Of a stretch of 64,000 nucleotides of DNA, positions 2,943 to 27,223 are shown piece after piece. The stretch lies in contig JAGXOA010000008.1 of assembly GCA_019894715.1 (NCBI GenBank), positions 6,710-70,709 of the forward strand, written 5' to 3'. The translations under genes and the position numbers were made by a program. The notes beneath the pieces were generated by a model that saw only the letters and a program-made list of their open reading frames with translations, had not been told where the DNA came from and did not search any database. The stretch is from Promethearchaeota archaeon. Its GTDB lineage: Archaea > Asgardarchaeota > Lokiarchaeia > Sigyniarchaeales > SOKP01. Each line of letters starts with the position of its first letter. Position 1 is the first letter of the stretch.

Positions 2943-3683
2943 ATGTCCATCATAAAGAATATTAAAAACCAACTGAAAAAGAAAACTATTGAAGAAATAA
3001 ATAGTTTAATTATAGATTTATCAAAAAATCCAAATGAAAAGTCCAAATTTATTATAGAATATCTTATCAATAATCTTTCTCGAGAAGAATTTAACAGAAT
3101 AAAAATAAATCTATTTTATTTTATAGGTAGACTATCTAAAACAGAAAAAATTGAGAATATATTAATAGAATTTTTAATAGATCAATTCCAAATATCAGAC
3201 CAATGGGAAAGAAGGGAAATTACTAAATCACTTAGAATTATTTCTAAAAATCAACAATTAAATGAAGGAATTATCAATCAATTGGTGATATCTCTGAAAG
3301 AAGATTATATACCAATTATAAAAAATATATTGGAAATCATTCTAAATATTCAAAGTTTAAATCAAAATATGATCAATGATATTTTATTATTATCTGATCA
3401 TAGAGATCGAGATATATCGATACTAAAAAAGAAAATATTTCTAAAGTTTATACATAATGAAAAAGAACTCTTTAAATTGCTCGATAACATGGATTTTTAT
3501 GAAAAACTAAGTGAAAGAAGCTTTAGAAAAATAATTGTATCATATTTTAGCCAATTAATTGAATTAAAGCCCTTTAGAATTAGAATTGAAAATTCAAATT
3601 GGAAGGAAAGAAAAAAAGAAAATTTTCTTAAAGAATTAGACACTTTTCAAAAAATATTATCAAAGGCACCTAAATTTAGTTAA
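2943..3683 (+). CDS. hypothetical helical-repeat protein
   Basis: 246-aa ORF, Leu/Ile/Lys-rich and predicted all-helical. No specific family recognised. Confidence 0.45.
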   Translation: MSIIKNIKNQLKKKTIEEINSLIIDLSKNPNEKSKFIIEYLINNLSREEFNRIKINLFYFIGRLSKTEKIENILIEFLIDQFQISDQWERREITKSLRIISKNQQLNEGIINQLVISLKEDYIPIIKNILEIILNIQSLNQNMINDILLLSDHRDRDISILKKKIFLKFIHNEKELFKLLDNMDFYEKLSERSFRKIIVSYFSQLIELKPFRIRIENSNWKERKKENFLKELDTFQKILSKAPKFS

Positions 3684-3963
3684 ATATCATCAAAAAAAAT
3701 AATAAAAATATAAATATTTGTTATAAATTTTTATTAATAATTCTTAACACACCATCTCTTTAATAATCTCTCTTTTCTATATCTCTAATAAAACATCATA
3801 TTCAAGGTATATAAAAAAGAGATTATTAAAGAGATCAATAAAGATTAGCATTGGAATTTTGATATTATTATGAGATGATTTCCCTCATTTATGGAATAAT
3901 ATTCTCATTTCGAGAAAAATGATCATGAGCCTTCATCTATCATAGTTAGACTAAGACGACCTC

Positions 3964-4101
3964 ATGAATGGTAAAGTAGTCGGAGATGATTCCTTTGGGA
4001 ATTTATTCGATAGAGGTAACTGGTTTTGGCCTGTACGAATAAGGGATAAGATCCAAACTTCGTATGAACAAATTGTAGTAAAAAATGTTAATATTATTTA
4101 A
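3964..4101 (+). other. 45-codon micro-ORF inside Family-A copy 1 (coding status unproven)
   Basis: ATG 3964, TAA 4099-4101, reading [45 protein letters not shown]. The same frame is open with identical length in copy 2 (27016-27153). No Shine-Dalgarno-like sequence upstream. Confidence 0.3.
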
Positions 4102-4117
4102 CATTTTTACTATTTTT
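4078..4117 (+). terminator. hairpin plus T-tract at the 3' end of Family-A copy 1
   Basis: gtaaaaaatgttaa / tatta / ttaacatttttac forms a 13-bp stem with one bulged A, followed by tattttt. The identical structure occurs at 27130-27169. Confidence 0.55.
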
Positions 4118-4124
4118 GATAACC

Positions 4125-5321
4125 TTATTCTTGATTAATTTTATCATAATAAATAATATCATTAAAAATCTTTATTAATATCTTTATAATGTTTCTGGGA
4201 TTACCTTCTGACTTATTATAGATCTTCTTTAAAATACTTTTACTTAGAGGATAATATGGATTTTTGAAATCAGATAATATTTCGGAGGAATTGATTGATT
4301 TAAGAAATTTATCGATCGTAAGTTTATAGAATTTATAGATATCTTCTTCCTTAAAATTAGATAAAAATAATGGTTCTTTTAGATTATTTGATAGTTCTAT
4401 ATTCTCTTGTTTAAATAACTTTTTTATTTCATCTAAAGAATTTTTAGAATTCAAAGTAATAATTTTCTTTAAATTCTTGATATTTTGCAATTCAGAAATT
4501 TTACCTAAGATATTTTTTGCAACAATATTATCAGAAGACTCTTCTGCACCATAATACCAGCTAGAATCAAAAAAGGTTTCAATTTCTTCTTCTTCCTTCA
4601 TTAGAGTAATAATTTTATCAAAATCATCAATAAAAATAATAGTGCCTAGCTTAGAATTTTCTATCAATACTTTTAACATAGTAAAGGCATTTTTTTTATT
4701 TCTTAGATCATTCTCGACATCTAATAGGGCAAGTTCTCTTATATTCATAAGTTCTCCTAATAAATAATCTTCAGCATCTATTCTTTTATATGGATCTAGT
4801 TGATGTGAGGTTATAACATTTATAATATCATTTAAAGAATTTTTATCCCCAAAATCATCTTTCCATTTATTAAGCGCGTTACTTCTTGCTTTTTGGATAT
4901 CAGGTATCGGAAAGAATCCATACTTCTTTTCCAGACCACTCCAATTATTGCACAATTCTTGTGTAATCATTCTAAGGTTTTCTATTCCTAATTCTTCAAT
5001 AAATTCAGAATATAAGTTAAAATAGAATTTTCTGTAAATATTATCTAAGGATATATAGATAATATTAAACTTATCTTTAAGATTCATTTTAAGAGACCAA
5101 AATAAATGGGTTTTACCAACACCAATATCTCCAAGAATAGGTAAAATAAAACCCTCATTTTCAGTTACAAATTTTATTAAAGAATTTAAAAAATGTCTTC
5201 TTGAATCGACAAAATCTAATAATTCCTCTATTTCACCTGTAGCTACAAAATTATTAAATGGATTTATTTTTATTTTTAATAATTTTAAGAATTTGAGTTT
5301 TAGGTTTTCCCACAGAAGCAA
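4125..5321 (-). CDS. AAA+/ORC-Cdc6-like P-loop ATPase (archaeal-ATPase type)
   Basis: Walker A ILGDIGVGKTHLFW, Walker B IIFIDDFDKI, and a C-terminal lid-like SEGNPRNIIKILIKIF resembling the GxxR lid motif of Cdc6-like AAA+ proteins. Confidence 0.65.
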   Translation of the reverse strand: MLLWENLKLKFLKLLKIKINPFNNFVATGEIEELLDFVDSRRHFLNSLIKFVTENEGFILPILGDIGVGKTHLFWSLKMNLKDKFNIIYISLDNIYRKFYFNLYSEFIEELGIENLRMITQELCNNWSGLEKKYGFFPIPDIQKARSNALNKWKDDFGDKNSLNDIINVITSHQLDPYKRIDAEDYLLGELMNIRELALLDVENDLRNKKNAFTMLKVLIENSKLGTIIFIDDFDKIITLMKEEEEIETFFDSSWYYGAEESSDNIVAKNILGKISELQNIKNLKKIITLNSKNSLDEIKKLFKQENIELSNNLKEPLFLSNFKEEDIYKFYKLTIDKFLKSINSSEILSDFKNPYYPLSKSILKKIYNKSEGNPRNIIKILIKIFNDIIYYDKINQE

Positions 5322-5331
5322 TATAAATACC

Positions 5332-5958
5332 TCATTCTTTTATTGTCTCTATACCTATTATAATAATATATCTAATTAACTTATCTGAAACATTGACAAT
5401 GGATTCATAACTTATAGATAGATTTTCTTTTTTATTTCTTCCTATAATTAGTGTTCCATAAAAAATAGGATTACTAGATTCATCAATAACAACTCTATCT
5501 GCCACACATATTCCATTATGAATTAATGCGATAGGATTTTTCAATATTTCTCCTTTAAAAAAATCTAAATGATTCATTCCTAAATGATTTTCGTTTAATA
5601 ATAATCCTGCTGAATGAAGTAAATTAATAGTATAAGGAAAAGCATCTGAAAATCTCTCTTTATCAAATTTCTCAACTAAATCCTCTGGTATTAACACAGA
5701 ATAATCAATAGTATCTTCATCTAAATTAAATCGAAAATTCGAACTTATTGAAAATGCTTCTTTTTTATTTGCTAAAATGGATTCAAAACCTACCATTAAA
5801 CCTTTATTGATTTCAATAATATTATCATAATAAACCAATGAATCCGTAAGAATAATATTTTCATTTTTACACATAACTATTATCGAACCATTAAATTTTC
5901 CATGAGTTCTGATATTTTTAACAGAGTCATATATTATATTTTTTGTATCGAGATTCAT
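5332..5958 (-). CDS. hypothetical 208-aa protein, apparently co-transcribed with the ATPase
   Basis: Only a 10-nt gap to the downstream ATPase gene on the same strand. No motif recognised. Confidence 0.5.
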   Translation of the reverse strand: MNLDTKNIIYDSVKNIRTHGKFNGSIIVMCKNENIILTDSLVYYDNIIEINKGLMVGFESILANKKEAFSISSNFRFNLDEDTIDYSVLIPEDLVEKFDKERFSDAFPYTINLLHSAGLLLNENHLGMNHLDFFKGEILKNPIALIHNGICVADRVVIDESSNPIFYGTLIIGRNKKENLSISYESIVNVSDKLIRYIIIIGIETIKE

Positions 5959-6093
5959 TTTCAGGGTTTTTAATTTAATCGTATTTTTTTTATTTAAATA
6001 ATTCTCTAGCTTTCTGACATTAACATTTTATACTATTATTTGATATACTAGATTATTAATTATAATTTTGGTTTATAAATAATATTATCAATC

Positions 6094-7317
6094 ATGGTAA
6101 AACGAGTTCTTGATTTATCTAAATTAGACCTTTTAGAAAGAGCCTCTCAATTCATTTATTCCACAGGATTAAATGATGGTACTTCTGAATTATGTAGGAA
6201 TAACATGAAATATGGTCTAGCTCAAATGCATTTGATTCAAGAAAAATATGGATTTGATCCTACAGCAACATTTATTTCCTCTCCTGATGAAACTATTTCA
6301 AGAAATAAATTAAGATGGGATTCTGGTTATGGTTATGGAGGAAAAATCGTATGGGGTTCAGGTAAGGATAAAATTGTCTTTTTAAATACAAAACCAAATC
6401 AATGTGGTATTTTAGTAGGTGGAATAAATGAAATTATTGATCCTTATACCATTATAAAGAAAATTAACGAAATAAACCAAAAGAAAATATATCATAATGA
6501 TATTTTGTTAGATTGGGATTATGGAATAAGTAATCATTTTATTAGTTTATTTGAAACAAAATACTTATCAGATATTGAATTTCCCCCTTATATTTTTTTG
6601 ATTCATGGTTCTGCTCCTGAAATTCGAGGAGATAAATATGGTATAGGTATTTATATAGATAAATCTAAAAATCTAAAAAATATGGCAATAAAAGAATCAA
6701 CAGTGTTTGGAGATCAATATATATTGGTAGATTCAAATGCTGATAAATATTTAGAATTAAATAACAAAGCATTGGATTTTTCAAAAGATAAAAGAGAGAT
6801 CATAGCGAAAGAATTATTTGAAAATGATTTTAAAATTATATGCAATCAACATCATCAATTTTTAGAGAATTTAAATACAATTTATTTAGGTTCTAGTTGC
6901 ACAAATATAGATAGCAGGGCAGTAGAATCAAATATCTTTCCAATTGTTTTAAGAGCTGATCTCCCGGCATATCTATTTGAAGGAAAAAAAAATTTTTCAA
7001 TTACTACAATAAAAAATCAAGATTTTGTTGATAGAGCTGAGAAATATAACGTTTTAGATAGACTTCAAAATGCGAATATTTTACCTCATGGAGCAGGATA
7101 TGCTTTCCCAGATATTAAGCACGTGACTGAAGTTATAGAATATAAGGAACAAAGATATTTTGTTTTGTCTTGTAATAATAAAGCAAAAAAGATAATTCGA
7201 GACCCAAATAACGTGCAATTTGAATATCGAGGAAGGGTTATTATTCTTAAAACACTTCAATTAGATTTAGGAGGAATTATTGCAAAATTAAATCCAATAT
7301 TTAGTTTAAAATTATAG
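6094..7317 (+). CDS. divergent RtcB-like protein (RNA 3'-phosphate ligase family)
   Basis: The RtcB motif order is recognisable: WDSGYGYGGKIV (cf PDxHxGxGxxIG), KPNQCGILVGG (cf DIGCG), ISNHFISLFE (cf GNHFIE), LIHGSAPEIRG (cf HSGSRG), CNQHHQF (cf NCHHNY) and LPHGAGYAF (cf HGAGR). At 407 aa it is shorter than canonical archaeal RtcB. Confidence 0.6.
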   Translation: MVKRVLDLSKLDLLERASQFIYSTGLNDGTSELCRNNMKYGLAQMHLIQEKYGFDPTATFISSPDETISRNKLRWDSGYGYGGKIVWGSGKDKIVFLNTKPNQCGILVGGINEIIDPYTIIKKINEINQKKIYHNDILLDWDYGISNHFISLFETKYLSDIEFPPYIFLIHGSAPEIRGDKYGIGIYIDKSKNLKNMAIKESTVFGDQYILVDSNADKYLELNNKALDFSKDKREIIAKELFENDFKIICNQHHQFLENLNTIYLGSSCTNIDSRAVESNIFPIVLRADLPAYLFEGKKNFSITTIKNQDFVDRAEKYNVLDRLQNANILPHGAGYAFPDIKHVTEVIEYKEQRYFVLSCNNKAKKIIRDPNNVQFEYRGRVIILKTLQLDLGGIIAKLNPIFSLKL

Positions 7318-7374: not shown

Positions 7375-8556
7375 TTAGGAATCAAAAATTATTTGGTTCC
7401 CACAGTATCTACACGCTTTTATTTCTTTATACATTTTCTCAAGACATGGTTTATGATAATATGAATTACAATTTTCACATTGAAAAACATCATAATCTCC
7501 TAAAAATATACTATGACAATATGAACAAGACGCATCTATATTTGTGATTTTTTCTTTCCTGACAAAAATCATTTTAGTATTATTATCCTCAAGATCTTCA
7601 ATTATCTTAATTTTTTGTGTATTTTTTTCGTATTCACTAATAATTTTTACCATCGATATTGGAACTCTCAATAGAAAATAACAAAAAGGACATCGGAATA
7701 CATTATTTTTAAACTCTGTTTTTCTAGCCCATAATGCAGCGCAAGATAGATGCATAGGATGTTCACATGATGGACAATATCGTCCTTCAGAGAAGAAATC
7801 CGCAGATGTTAAAGGGGATTTATTGGAATGACATATTTGACATTTTTCTTGCACTGATCTTTGATTAGTTATCATTATTCTTATTTCCATTATGGTAGGG
7901 CGCCTAAGAGGTAATGAAATTTCGTTAAGAAGTGGAGGAATTTCTTTCTTTTTATTAGGTGAAAAGTAATCTGAAGTTTTTTTAAGATTTTTCTTAGAAG
8001 CAAATGCTTTTCCTGCATTTATTATTGCTTTAACATTACTGAAAAATCCAAATTCTCCTCCGGTGATTTTTGAAATTTTTCTCAATATGTTGTTTTGAAA
8101 ATTTTTTGATAGTCCAATTTGACAAGTATCAACAACAATACCTAATCCCTTGGCAATATCAATAATTCTATCTATTTTTTTACTTGCTTCTATTTTATTA
8201 TCACTTATAATTATAATTCTAGAAACTTTTCCGCCAATCTTTCGCATTTCTTCTACTAAAATTTGTAGAGCAAACGATATGGCATCGTGTAAAACACCAT
8301 TTCCAGAAATATGGATCTTATCTAAAGCTTTTAATAGTAATGTAGCATTGTTGGAAAAAGGGCTTAACTTTTGAGTTATCTTTCCAAAACATAAAACTGA
8401 AATCCTATCTTTTGGATCTATCAAGAACTTGTTTTGTATCAGATTTGAAACCATTTTTTTGGCGATTGATAATCTATTTGGTTTAAAATCGCTTCTTAAC
8501 ATTGATCTTGAAGAATCTATTAGTATAACTGTATCTTCTATTTTAATTTCTTCCAA
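7375..8556 (-). CDS. vWA-domain protein with two C-terminal Cys/His zinc modules (TFIIH p44/Ssl1-like architecture)
   Basis: N-terminal MIDAS VILIDSSRSMLRSDFKPNRL (the DxSxS...D-x-KPNRL signature of Ssl1/p44 and Rpn10-type vWA domains), then ITGGEF. Zn modules are CQICHS..CPSCEHPMHLSC..FRCPFC and CSYCHS..FQCENCNSYYHKPC..CRYCGN. Confidence 0.7.
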   Translation of the reverse strand: MEEIKIEDTVILIDSSRSMLRSDFKPNRLSIAKKMVSNLIQNKFLIDPKDRISVLCFGKITQKLSPFSNNATLLLKALDKIHISGNGVLHDAISFALQILVEEMRKIGGKVSRIIIISDNKIEASKKIDRIIDIAKGLGIVVDTCQIGLSKNFQNNILRKISKITGGEFGFFSNVKAIINAGKAFASKKNLKKTSDYFSPNKKKEIPPLLNEISLPLRRPTIMEIRIMITNQRSVQEKCQICHSNKSPLTSADFFSEGRYCPSCEHPMHLSCAALWARKTEFKNNVFRCPFCYFLLRVPISMVKIISEYEKNTQKIKIIEDLEDNNTKMIFVRKEKITNIDASCSYCHSIFLGDYDVFQCENCNSYYHKPCLEKMYKEIKACRYCGNQIIFDS

Positions 8557-26571: not shown

Positions 26572-27015
26572 GATGGAACAAGTTATTGAGATTAAATTGA
26601 TTTATAAAATAATTATATTTTAAGATATAATAGTTATAACTATCATATAATAAAAATCTTAAATATTATTGTTTGTATTATTTCTATTATTATTATTCAT
26701 TATGAACTTTTCTCACAATCATATCATCAAAAAAAATAATAAAAATATTAATATTTGTTATAAATTTTTATTAAAATTCATTCATCGTAATAAATAGACC
26801 AATAATTAAATTATTAATAATTCTTAACACACCATCTCTTTATATAAGATCTTTTCTCTTTTCTATCTCTCTAATAAATCATATCATTAATAAAGACTAG
26901 CATTGGAATTTTAATATTATTGTAAGAGGATTTCCCTCATTTGTGGAATAATATTCTCATTTCGAGAAAAATTATCATGATCTTTTATCTGTCATAGTTA
27001 GACTGAGACGACCTA

Positions 27016-27153
27016 ATGAATGCTAAAGTAGTCGAAAACGATTCTTTTTGGAATTTATTCGATAGAGGTAACTGGTTTTGGTCTGTACAAATAAGGGACA
27101 AGATCCAAACTTCGTATGAACAAATTATAGTAAAAAATGTTAATATTATTTAA
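27016..27153 (+). other. 45-codon micro-ORF inside Family-A copy 2 (coding status unproven)
   Basis: [45 protein letters not shown]. Same length and frame as copy 1. Confidence 0.3.
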
Positions 27154-27169
27154 CATTTTTACTTTTTTT
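27130..27169 (+). terminator. hairpin plus T-tract at the 3' end of Family-A copy 2
   Basis: Same stem-loop as 4078-4110, followed by ttttttt. Confidence 0.55.
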
Positions 27170-27223
27170 GATAACCTAATCAAAGCTTAATCTTATTAAA
27201 AAAAGCAAAATTTATCAAAATAT

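Follow-up and report, generated by a model that had tools for sequence, protein, structure and literature searches.

A Lokiarchaeia-specific gene pair encoding an ORC/STAND-type AAA+ ATPase and an acidic protein with two predicted barrels, with a possible role in DNA transactions

Two adjacent genes, one for a 398-aa ATPase of the ORC/STAND type and one for a 208-aa partner (p208), were found to form a true and strongly conserved two-gene unit, which is vertically inherited and specific to Lokiarchaeia. Both are encoded in the 64-kb stretch of DNA analysed here (the window). Their products might act together as an ATP-switched adaptor complex in housekeeping DNA transactions, rather than as part of a defence island or of an RtcB RNA-repair module; this is the explanation we tentatively favour, at a little under an even chance.

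Both genes are read from the reverse strand. The p208 gene (5332..5958), which starts with ATG, is the first of the bicistron, and its stop codon is followed after a spacer of 10 nt (5322..5331) by the TTG start of the ATPase gene (4125..5321). This TTG start is supported because the N-terminal MLLxEN that follows from it is conserved family-wide. The stop codon of p208 overlaps with a Shine-Dalgarno-like GAGGT motif (AAAGAATGAGGTATTTATATTG), which is consistent with coupled translation. Ahead of p208, an AT-rich intergenic region of 135 bp (5959..6093) is common to p208 and a divergent RtcB-like gene and presumably holds candidate promoters of both transcription units.

The ATPase gene directly follows p208 in 69 of 70 species-level Asgard genomes, the exception being a contig end, and in 61 of the 62 measurable orthologous loci the two genes lie on the same strand with a gap of 4-39 nt. 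Across this core clade the two proteins are 47-88% identical, which is comparable to the products of the neighbouring genes. Moreover, the adjacency persists across four different contexts at an ATPase identity of 22-43%, with values as low as 22-30%; the pair is an operon in loci L073-L077, L083 and L085, divergent in L078-L082, L087 and L089-L093, and convergent in L071 and L072, and in lineages of the Dna2/Topo type, described below, the two genes overlap by 4 nt. The pair was found in Lokiarchaeia only, and none of the locus-tag prefixes seen for the core type recurs among the other types. The matches listed in a second homology search, run with a diverse ATPase alignment, all belonged to the core clade. 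Mirror-tree analysis did not single out p208 and the ATPase (partial r 0.23), while p208 scored highest with the RtcB-like protein (0.49) and the ATPase reached 0.48 with a HEAT-repeat neighbour.

In the core clade, the pair lies in a block composed of genes for an M20 peptidase, a vWA/zinc-finger protein, usually MetRS, the RtcB-like protein, the pair itself and the HEAT protein, with MetRS between the vWA and RtcB-like genes in most loci. This surrounding had been described as accessory-looking, a description that has to be withdrawn, since the block is a fixed, vertically inherited synteny of one clade in 70 species genomes with MetRS inside most of its copies. The RtcB-like neighbour in the window (6094..7317, forward strand, 407 aa) is highly divergent and was assigned from weak matches to RtcB models. 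Among its family, 21 of 25 members match such models, the lowest E being 1.3e-4 and the scores far under the curated cut-offs of 272-407 bits; residues C104, H148, H171, H254 and H332 are invariant and stand in an RtcB-like order in a family alignment that holds no real RtcB, and a search of PDB sequences with the family gave no match. The 407-aa protein is best regarded as a probable and very remote RtcB relative, and it does not belong to the two-gene unit. Converging on its gene is a vWA gene with RING/PHD-type zinc fingers (7375..8556, reverse strand, 393 aa), which has an Ssl1-like match and is placed there by clade-specific synteny. On the other side, the gene of the 246-aa HEAT-repeat protein (2943..3683, forward strand), with matches to alphaRep and to the HEAT repeats of Integrator-4, converges on the ATPase gene and is retained in 59 of the 70 core loci as well as in L075 and L076.

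The original prediction had described the arrangement of the RtcB-related and vWA/zinc-finger genes correctly, but a link of the pair to these genes, which it proposed to check by co-occurrence, did not hold, as they are kept as neighbours in the window's own clade only and are lost elsewhere. The RtcB-like gene is divergent to the pair in 61 of 70 core loci. One step beyond the core clade, in L075, it lies 3 kb off with three unrelated genes between, and it is displaced likewise in L076; in all other lineages, with loci of the Dna2/Topo, lone and TIR types, both the RtcB-like and the vWA gene are absent from the neighbourhood. The two genes thus appear not to be functionally tied to the pair and to be its neighbours by clade-specific synteny.

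Between the ATPase stop codon and the HEAT gene, repeat comparison revealed a copy of a repeat termed Family A (3684..4125), a non-coding insertion of about 440 bp and the sole local mobile feature beside the pair. A second copy occurs at 26721-27177 with 83-87% identity. The pair had been called flanked by Family A; the repeat is real and present in two copies, but only one side of the pair carries it. The copy next to the ATPase gene contains a palindrome of 80 nt (3754-3835) as well as a hairpin, which lies directly 3' of the stop codon of that gene. In L009, the one locus read directly, the orthologous ATPase–HEAT spacer is about 10 nt and lacks Family A, and a search of the 70 loci returned two short weak matches only (about 45 nt, E ~1e-4). 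Family A has no Rfam family and no significant RNA fold, and its miRNA matches were discarded, as they reflect the palindrome and not a structured RNA.

The ATPase represents a new family of ORC/STAND-type AAA+ proteins. Its Walker A (GDIGVGKTH, residues 64-72, nt 5106-5132), Walker B (IIFIDDFD, residues 228-235, nt 4617-4640) and GNPR motifs (residues 373-376, nt 4194-4205) are kept family-wide in the alignments, the most divergent branches included, and with its P-loop, its Walker B and the sensor-2 arginine of GNPR conserved, the enzyme is catalytically complete by its motifs. In addition, the N-terminal peptide MLLxEN...INPF..FV.TGEI is conserved, an SR motif precedes the P-loop, a helical insertion of about 120 residues (99-222) stands ahead of Walker B, and GNPR sits in a basic helical lid. 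The AlphaFold model (pLDDT 82.5) has the lid helices H361-371 and H375-391 at its C-terminus, with the protein ending at residue 398, and contains no winged helix after the lid. The two reading frames, the 10-nt gap, the three motifs and the lack of a recognisable DNA-binding winged helix, as originally described, were each confirmed. No effector domain and no C-terminal sensor repeats were found in the 398 residues.

Fold matches of the ATPase are all weak, with TM ~0.35-0.39. The best Foldseek match is mS29/DAP3 (8om2_W, E 8e-5; also 8d8l_W and 7pnt_X; TM ~0.38-0.39, identity 12-15%), while A. pernix ORC2 (E 7e-4), human ORC4 (E 1e-3) and Cdc6 complexes were matched within a range of 7e-4 to 4e-3 at TM ~0.35, and the top matches further include MuB, NLR resistosomes (plant NRC, G10) and RdrA. 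The best Pfam match is PF01637 (ATPase_2; E 1.6e-5, 25.3 bits, residues 41-305), which is under the gathering threshold of 33.2 bits; divergent family members score 18-23 bits against the same model. Sub-threshold matches in Pfam and NCBIfam comprise ATPase_2, AAA_16, AAA_22, IstB, TniB, DnaA/Hda, NB-ARC and NACHT, with nSTAND1 at 0.035 in Pfam, and the family also weakly matches BrxC/D. No Orc1/Cdc6 model reached E <= 1 in the NCBIfam and Pfam searches, and a search of PDB sequences with a profile of 34 family members returned no ORC or Cdc6 chain and nothing meaningful.

The partner p208 likewise founds a new family, which is acidic and predicted to consist of two Sm/SH3-like barrels. In the AlphaFold model (pLDDT 79, pTM 0.79), residues 8-89 and 138-200 form two beta-meander barrels, each half being a bent meander of five strands. 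The barrels are joined by a linker, FPYTINLLHSAGL...NHLDFFKGEILKNP (the latter at nt 5533-5574), which is highly conserved and modelled with low confidence; such a segment may fold upon partner binding. Residues D11, I26, E137, I138, D154, R155, R174, E185 and G202 are invariant in the family alignments, and the proteins are strongly acidic (median pI 4.5, net charge about -14). The original prediction that p208 matches nothing known was upheld, as Pfam, NCBIfam, PHROGs and PDB sequences gave no match and PADLOC gave noise only. Foldseek returned Sm/LSm-like proteins and small phage RNA-binding proteins at E ~1e-2, and for one barrel the superposition with Sm/LSm subunits spans about 70 columns, with probability 1.0 and a target-normalised TM of 0.5-0.64. 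The Sm-like assignment thus comes from weak fold matches to a predicted model, and sequence comparison lends it no support: a Pfam scan of 34 members at E <= 10 gave noise with no LSM-type family matched by any, and hhalign of each half against a small, approximate Sm alignment (AF-Sm1 verified) gave probabilities of 0.1-0.3%. An internal duplication is unproven, the N-half and C-half aligning at E 0.005 with a probability of only 7%. Sliding-clamp matches were spurious (TM 0.09), and an RMI1-like OB-fold was set aside, since a simple meander topology is predicted and no RMI1 is among the fold matches.

Outside the core clade, at least 8 distinct lineages have the pair flanked by a Dna2-like helicase-nuclease, which combines a Cas4-type PD-(D/E)XK nuclease with an SF1B helicase, and by archaeal TopA, a type IA topoisomerase. 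These clusters occur in two gene orders, with identities of 31-60% for the Dna2-like proteins and 43-65% for TopA. Genes for a B3_4 protein, an Fe-dependent repressor and a radical SAM protein are likewise conserved in some of these loci, and the clustering might reflect a gene order kept by descent instead of a functional tie. Dna2-like and topoisomerase IA genes are absent from the 64-kb window and, in the 70 core loci, from the range of +/-8 kb, and the link of the pair to DNA transactions is one of association.

In the adaptor complex that we tentatively favour, p208 would be an adaptor or regulatory subunit docking on the ATPase, probably via the invariant linker and the C-terminal barrel. 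It is taken as an adaptor rather than a nucleic-acid binder because of its low pI and strongly negative charge and because its conserved linker is modelled with low confidence. The ATPase might provide a nucleotide-dependent switch or a platform for oligomerisation, comparable to ORC, Cdc6, DnaC, IstB, MuB and STAND proteins, and the complex may act together with the Dna2-like nuclease-helicase and the topoisomerase in replication, repair or recombination. A few versions, paralogous or derived, would use this switch to drive an N-terminal TIR effector. A more far-reaching version is unlikely in our estimate: a hitherto unrecognised accessory replication/repair machine throughout Lokiarchaeia, in which an ORC/DAP3-like switch and an acidic double-barrel adaptor load or regulate the Dna2-like enzyme and topoisomerase IA as a functional counterpart, among the nearest archaeal relatives of eukaryotes, of the eukaryotic Dna2-Top3-accessory-subunit machinery, with at least one co-option into a TIR immune sensor.

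As a conflict or defence module, the pair would be a minimal STAND-like NTPase with p208 as its sensor, which oligomerises on detection of an invader and triggers an effector. Two divergent family members (L071 and L072) are indeed fusions of an N-terminal TIR_2 domain to the ATPase (553 and 518 aa), which retain a p208-like neighbour and have no C-terminal repeats; one of these loci lies near an LRR-TIR protein, and the fusion gives sub-threshold matches to NB-ARC (0.0014) and NACHT (0.0021), alongside the BrxC/D, resistosome and RdrA similarities of the family. STAND proteins commonly use TIR effectors, and Dap3, a relative of ORC, is counted among the STAND NTPases (PMC8195603). The fusions point towards a conflict role for at least part of the family. 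Against such a role for the pair as a whole, an effector domain is absent from the window version and nearly all others, and the locus is fixed in 70 species beside MetRS and the peptidase, with a conservation similar to that of its housekeeping neighbours. Matches in PADLOC-DB 2.0 stayed at noise level (DpdH, E 0.0078 across about 50 P-loop residues; Cas5b for p208, E 0.005), and neither viral contigs encoding the pair nor PHROGs matches were found. Typical defence genes spread by HGT, whereas this family is restricted to one archaeal class and is small, with 43 p208 clusters among 1.84 billion representatives. The defence role originally suggested is therefore improbable. An RNA-repair or RNP module, with p208 as an Sm-like RNA chaperone and the ATPase as an mS29-like RNA- or ribosome-associated NTPase working with the RtcB-like ligase, would account for the prevalent divergent arrangement, the nearby MetRS, the best fold match of the ATPase and the restriction of p208 fold matches to Sm/LSm and small phage RNA-binding proteins, and the mirror-tree value of p208 is highest with the RtcB-like protein. 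That value may, however, merely mirror physical adjacency; the RtcB-like gene is displaced or gone beyond the core clade, the acidity of p208 is unfavourable to RNA binding, and the Sm likeness comes with weak fold scores and no signal at the sequence level, which together make this module quite improbable.

The ATPase could also be an ordinary Orc1/Cdc6 paralogue, that is, a replication initiator with an accessory subunit. The ORC and Cdc6 fold matches favour this, as do the SR...L motif ahead of the P-loop and GNPR at the sensor-2 position, which we take to resemble Orc/Cdc6 motifs. However, the TM values of these fold matches are low, the best fold match is mS29/DAP3 and not ORC, and the PDB profile search recovered neither ORC nor Cdc6; with no model match and no winged helix, membership is effectively refuted, and we consider it scarcely credible. 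The original prediction had named three outcomes that would count against it, namely a pair not conserved as neighbours elsewhere, a 208-aa protein from a housekeeping family, and an ordinary Orc1/Cdc6 paralogue. None of them was found, because the genes are conserved neighbours wherever examined, p208 is a member of no known family, and the ATPase is not Orc1/Cdc6.

Lokiarchaeia include the cultured Asgard archaea that serve as models for eukaryogenesis, and an unannotated two-gene module conserved throughout the class is a concrete gap in their core biology. That the pair repeatedly clusters with an enzyme of Dna2 architecture and a type IA topoisomerase points towards genome maintenance. 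In addition, the TIR-fused versions suggest that an ORC/STAND-type switch with a separate adaptor can shift between housekeeping and immune roles, a theme that bears on how eukaryotic STAND and NLR proteins, as well as mS29/DAP3, arose. In annotation, reading an ATPase next to an unknown gene as a defence system is a tempting mistake, which is corrected here.

Among known systems, the initiator/helicase-loader AAA+ proteins (ORC, Cdc6, DnaA, DnaC, IstB, MuB, TniB) share with the ATPase an AAA+ core with a helical lid, a partner protein and weak fold and profile similarity. Moreover, they have a conserved motif with an arginine ahead of the P-loop, a sensor-2 arginine within G-x-P/A-R, and helices inserted between beta2 and Walker B, at the position of the initiator-specific motif; this insertion is far larger in the ATPase. 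In contrast to them, the ATPase lacks a winged helix, falls below threshold in all curated Orc1/Cdc6, DnaA and IstB models, and has an obligate small acidic barrel partner, which is unknown in that clade. With mS29/DAP3 and the "Dap3/CR-ATPase-like" STAND NTPases it shares a single NTPase and lid module without repeat sensor domains, but no sequence-profile match exists, and mS29 has no p208-like partner. Archaeal ATPases of the PF01637/AAA_16 type resemble it in their archaeal distribution, and some homologues carry a precomputed PF01637 label; a C-terminal wHTH (DUF234) is typical of PF01637 members but lacking in the window ATPase.

TIR-STAND and NLR-like immune NTPases have in common with the family the TIR-NTPase architecture of two members and the weak NB-ARC/NACHT similarity. 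The window ATPase differs in having neither effector nor C-terminal sensor repeats, in its stable core-genome site and in its separately encoded partner, and so does not conform to the tripartite STAND architecture of N-terminal effector, NTPase and C-terminal repeat sensor. Compared with Sm/LSm proteins, p208 has no Sm1/Sm2 motifs and no LSM Pfam match, and it is a strongly acidic tandem of two barrels. As for the eukaryotic Dna2/Sgs1(BLM)/Top3/Rmi1 resection-dissolution machinery, Top3 works with Rmi1, a small accessory subunit that is a beta-barrel of the OB-fold, whereas the p208 meander is predicted to be Sm/SH3-like and not OB-like; the clusters showed no helicase of the RecQ type, and we know of no AAA+ subunit in the eukaryotic complex. 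What the two have in common, by analogy only, is that beyond the core clade the pair is found in clusters with a nuclease-helicase of Dna2 architecture and a topoisomerase of type IA.

The 208-aa protein p208 (5332..5958, minus strand, ATG start) and the 398-aa AAA+ ATPase (4125..5321, minus strand, TTG start) are encoded in tandem on a very AT-rich contig (GC about 25%) of a Lokiarchaeota MAG, with a 10-nt spacer between them and a GAGGT motif overlapping the p208 stop codon. The TTG start of the ATPase is supported because all homologues start MLLxEN. Walker A (GDIGVGKTH), Walker B (IIFIDDFD) and GNPR were all found and are conserved, and on re-reading the sequence, the ORFs, gap and ATPase motifs were as the original prediction had described them.

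More than 120 homologue clusters were found for each of p208 and the ATPase (46-88% identity), all from Asgard MAGs, and many of these homologues carry consecutive locus tags. A scan with one genome per GTDB species gave 70 core loci, one per genome, and in 69 of these p208 is directly followed by the ATPase gene, the lone exception being a contig end; the two genes share a strand and lie 4-39 nt apart in 61 of the 62 measurable loci, so the proposed pair is kept as neighbours elsewhere. An exhaustive profile search recovered only 43 p208 clusters among 1.84 billion representatives, and the named members are all Lokiarchaeota/Promethearchaeota, strain CR_4 among them. The ATPases of divergent loci are 22-43% identical to the window ATPase (e.g., E 8e-51), with Walker A, Walker B and GNPR nearly invariant. 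The p208/ATPase family is narrow yet internally deep, and the pairing outlasts rearrangement. One p208 homologue on a JGI contig of 2.4 kb (P0241) is annotated as 393 aa, in which p208 corresponds to residues 3-206 and ~190 C-terminal residues follow; this extra C-terminus could reflect either gene fusion or an error in gene calling.

The contexts of divergent members, sampled as loci in other genomes (L handles), were sorted into four classes. In class (a) (L075/L076), the operon is accompanied by the HEAT protein, and the RtcB-like gene lies 3 kb off behind three unrelated genes. Class (b) occurs in two gene orders, namely Dna2-like, p208, ATPase (4-nt overlap) and convergent Topo IA (b1; L073/74, L077, L083, L084, L085, L094), or the ATPase and p208 transcribed divergently, with Topo IA and Dna2-like following (b2; L080-L082, L087, L089, L090). 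Class (c) (L078/79) is a lone divergent pair, while in class (d) (L071/L072) a p208-like gene is convergent with one for a TIR_2 protein, in which the ATPase homologue occupies the C-terminal ~330 residues. The pairing is kept in all four classes, and the functional unit is therefore p208 plus the ATPase. The TIR_2-ATPase fusions (L072:6635-8296 and L071:1025-2581, both minus strand), each paired with a p208-like gene, may belong to a TIR signalling system of Asgard archaea that has yet to be characterised. Within 5 kb, L072 also encodes an LRR-TIR protein and a homologue of actin, and a TPR protein adjoins in L071.

In the core loci, the gene order is M20 peptidase, vWA/Zn-finger, MetRS, RtcB-like (divergent), p208, ATPase and HEAT-repeat (convergent). 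The neighbours are kept in 52-61 of the 70 loci, the misses being mostly short contigs. MetRS lies within the block in most loci (e.g., L009:4514-6595, between the vWA and RtcB-like genes) and is missing from that position in the window and its closest relative L002, and therefore was relocated or lost there in that sub-lineage. Identity runs at about 50% in the pair, with the peptidase, vWA and RtcB-like proteins at 55-63% and the HEAT protein at about 32%. With this order held across 70 species loci and identities comparable along the block, the context of the pair is core synteny rather than an accessory island.

The RtcB-like protein (407 aa; 6094-7317, plus strand) belongs to a highly conserved family (mean column identity 77%) with five invariant Cys/His residues (C104, H148, H171, H254 and H332). 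It is only remotely RtcB-like, the top weak matches being PRK09588 and the 'release_rtcB' model TIGR03073, and the family may represent a new group of RtcB-fold enzymes in Lokiarchaeia. The vWA protein (7375-8556, minus strand) carries PHD/RING-type zinc fingers after its vWA domain and a Pfam Ssl1-like match (E 4e-10), an architecture reminiscent of TFIIH p44/Ssl1, and its synteny is kept in 57 of 70 genomes. The 246-aa HEAT-repeat protein (2943-3683, plus strand) matches designed alphaRep proteins and the HEAT repeats of Integrator subunit 4; its partial distance-matrix correlation with the ATPase is the second-highest (0.48), a value that adjacency alone may explain, and in this mirror-tree analysis p208 and the ATPase did not stand out as a pair. 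Downstream of the HEAT gene, several lineages have a DUF4350/IFT52-GIFT-like protein (L009:10807-13002, L075:10473-12074); outside these, GIFT domains are known from intraflagellar transport in eukaryotes.

The repeat said to flank the pair, Family A, is real and has a second copy (3684-4125 and 26721-27177; ~440 bp, non-coding, 83-87% identity), and is a local insertion on a single side of the pair. Both copies are terminated by a AAAATGTTAA...TTAACATTTT hairpin, and copy 1 has an additional near-perfect 80-nt palindrome (3754-3835). Only two short weak matches were found among the 70 orthologous loci, and an Rfam search and RNA folding gave no match and no significant fold. Family A looks like a MITE-like insertion.

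In line with the original prediction, p208 matched no housekeeping family, as Pfam, NCBIfam, PHROG and PDB sequences were all empty. Two five-strand beta-meanders make up its model (pLDDT 79), and the linker between them is the best-conserved stretch of the sequence yet of low confidence in the model. Fold comparison gave coherent matches only to Sm/LSm proteins and to small Sm-like or RNA-binding proteins of phages (E ~1e-2 to 3e-3), and sequence-level Sm tests were negative. p208 is strongly acidic, with a pI of 4.5 and a net charge of about -14, and charged residues make up most of its invariant positions (D11, E137, D154, R155, R174 and E185).

In the ATPase model (pLDDT 82.5), the AAA+ alpha/beta core is accompanied by a helical insertion of ~120 residues preceding Walker B and by a basic helical lid, and there is no winged helix. 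Foldseek ranked mS29/DAP3 first (8e-5), followed by A. pernix ORC2 (7e-4) and human ORC4, with HslU, TRIP13, NLR resistosomes, RdrA and MuB lower (TM only 0.3-0.4 overall). Sequence-profile matches to ATPase_2, AAA_16, AAA_22, IstB, TniB, Hda, NB-ARC and NACHT were all sub-threshold. Dap3 has been grouped with the STAND NTPases, as a relative of ORC (PMC8195603), and from this classification, the fold matches and the sub-threshold profiles, the ATPase is assigned to the ORC/STAND supergroup, where it forms a new family. The alternative that it is an ordinary Orc1/Cdc6 paralogue was rejected on the missing winged helix, the weak ORC fold matches and the absence of any Orc1/Cdc6 model match at E <= 1 in NCBIfam or Pfam, and is highly improbable.

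As read from sequence and models, p208, a predicted small acidic barrel, is obligately paired with a catalytically complete ORC/STAND-type ATPase, and the pair is stably inherited inside one archaeal class with occasional TIR fusion. In divergent lineages, it clusters recurrently with genes for a nuclease-helicase of Dna2 architecture and an archaeal type IA topoisomerase, neither of which was found in the window or the 70 core loci. p208 might bind the ATPase as an adaptor or regulator, the ATPase might act as a nucleotide-dependent switch or assembly platform, and the physiological arena might be DNA replication, repair or recombination. This account of the module is a realistic but tentative one, and its DNA-specific part is more tentative still. 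The defence system suggested originally is unlikely, with no PADLOC match beyond noise, no PHROG match and no viral contigs. An RNA module linked to the RtcB-like gene is quite unlikely, as the adjacency of the RtcB-like gene, like that of the vWA gene, is clade-specific; the accessory, defence or RNA-repair framing is not supported at the window locus.

p208 and the ATPase each define an unannotated family, and a literature search found no paper describing either. The kind of system favoured here, an AAA+/STAND switch with an adaptor, is already known; its partner p208, its architecture and its Lokiarchaeia-wide distribution are new.
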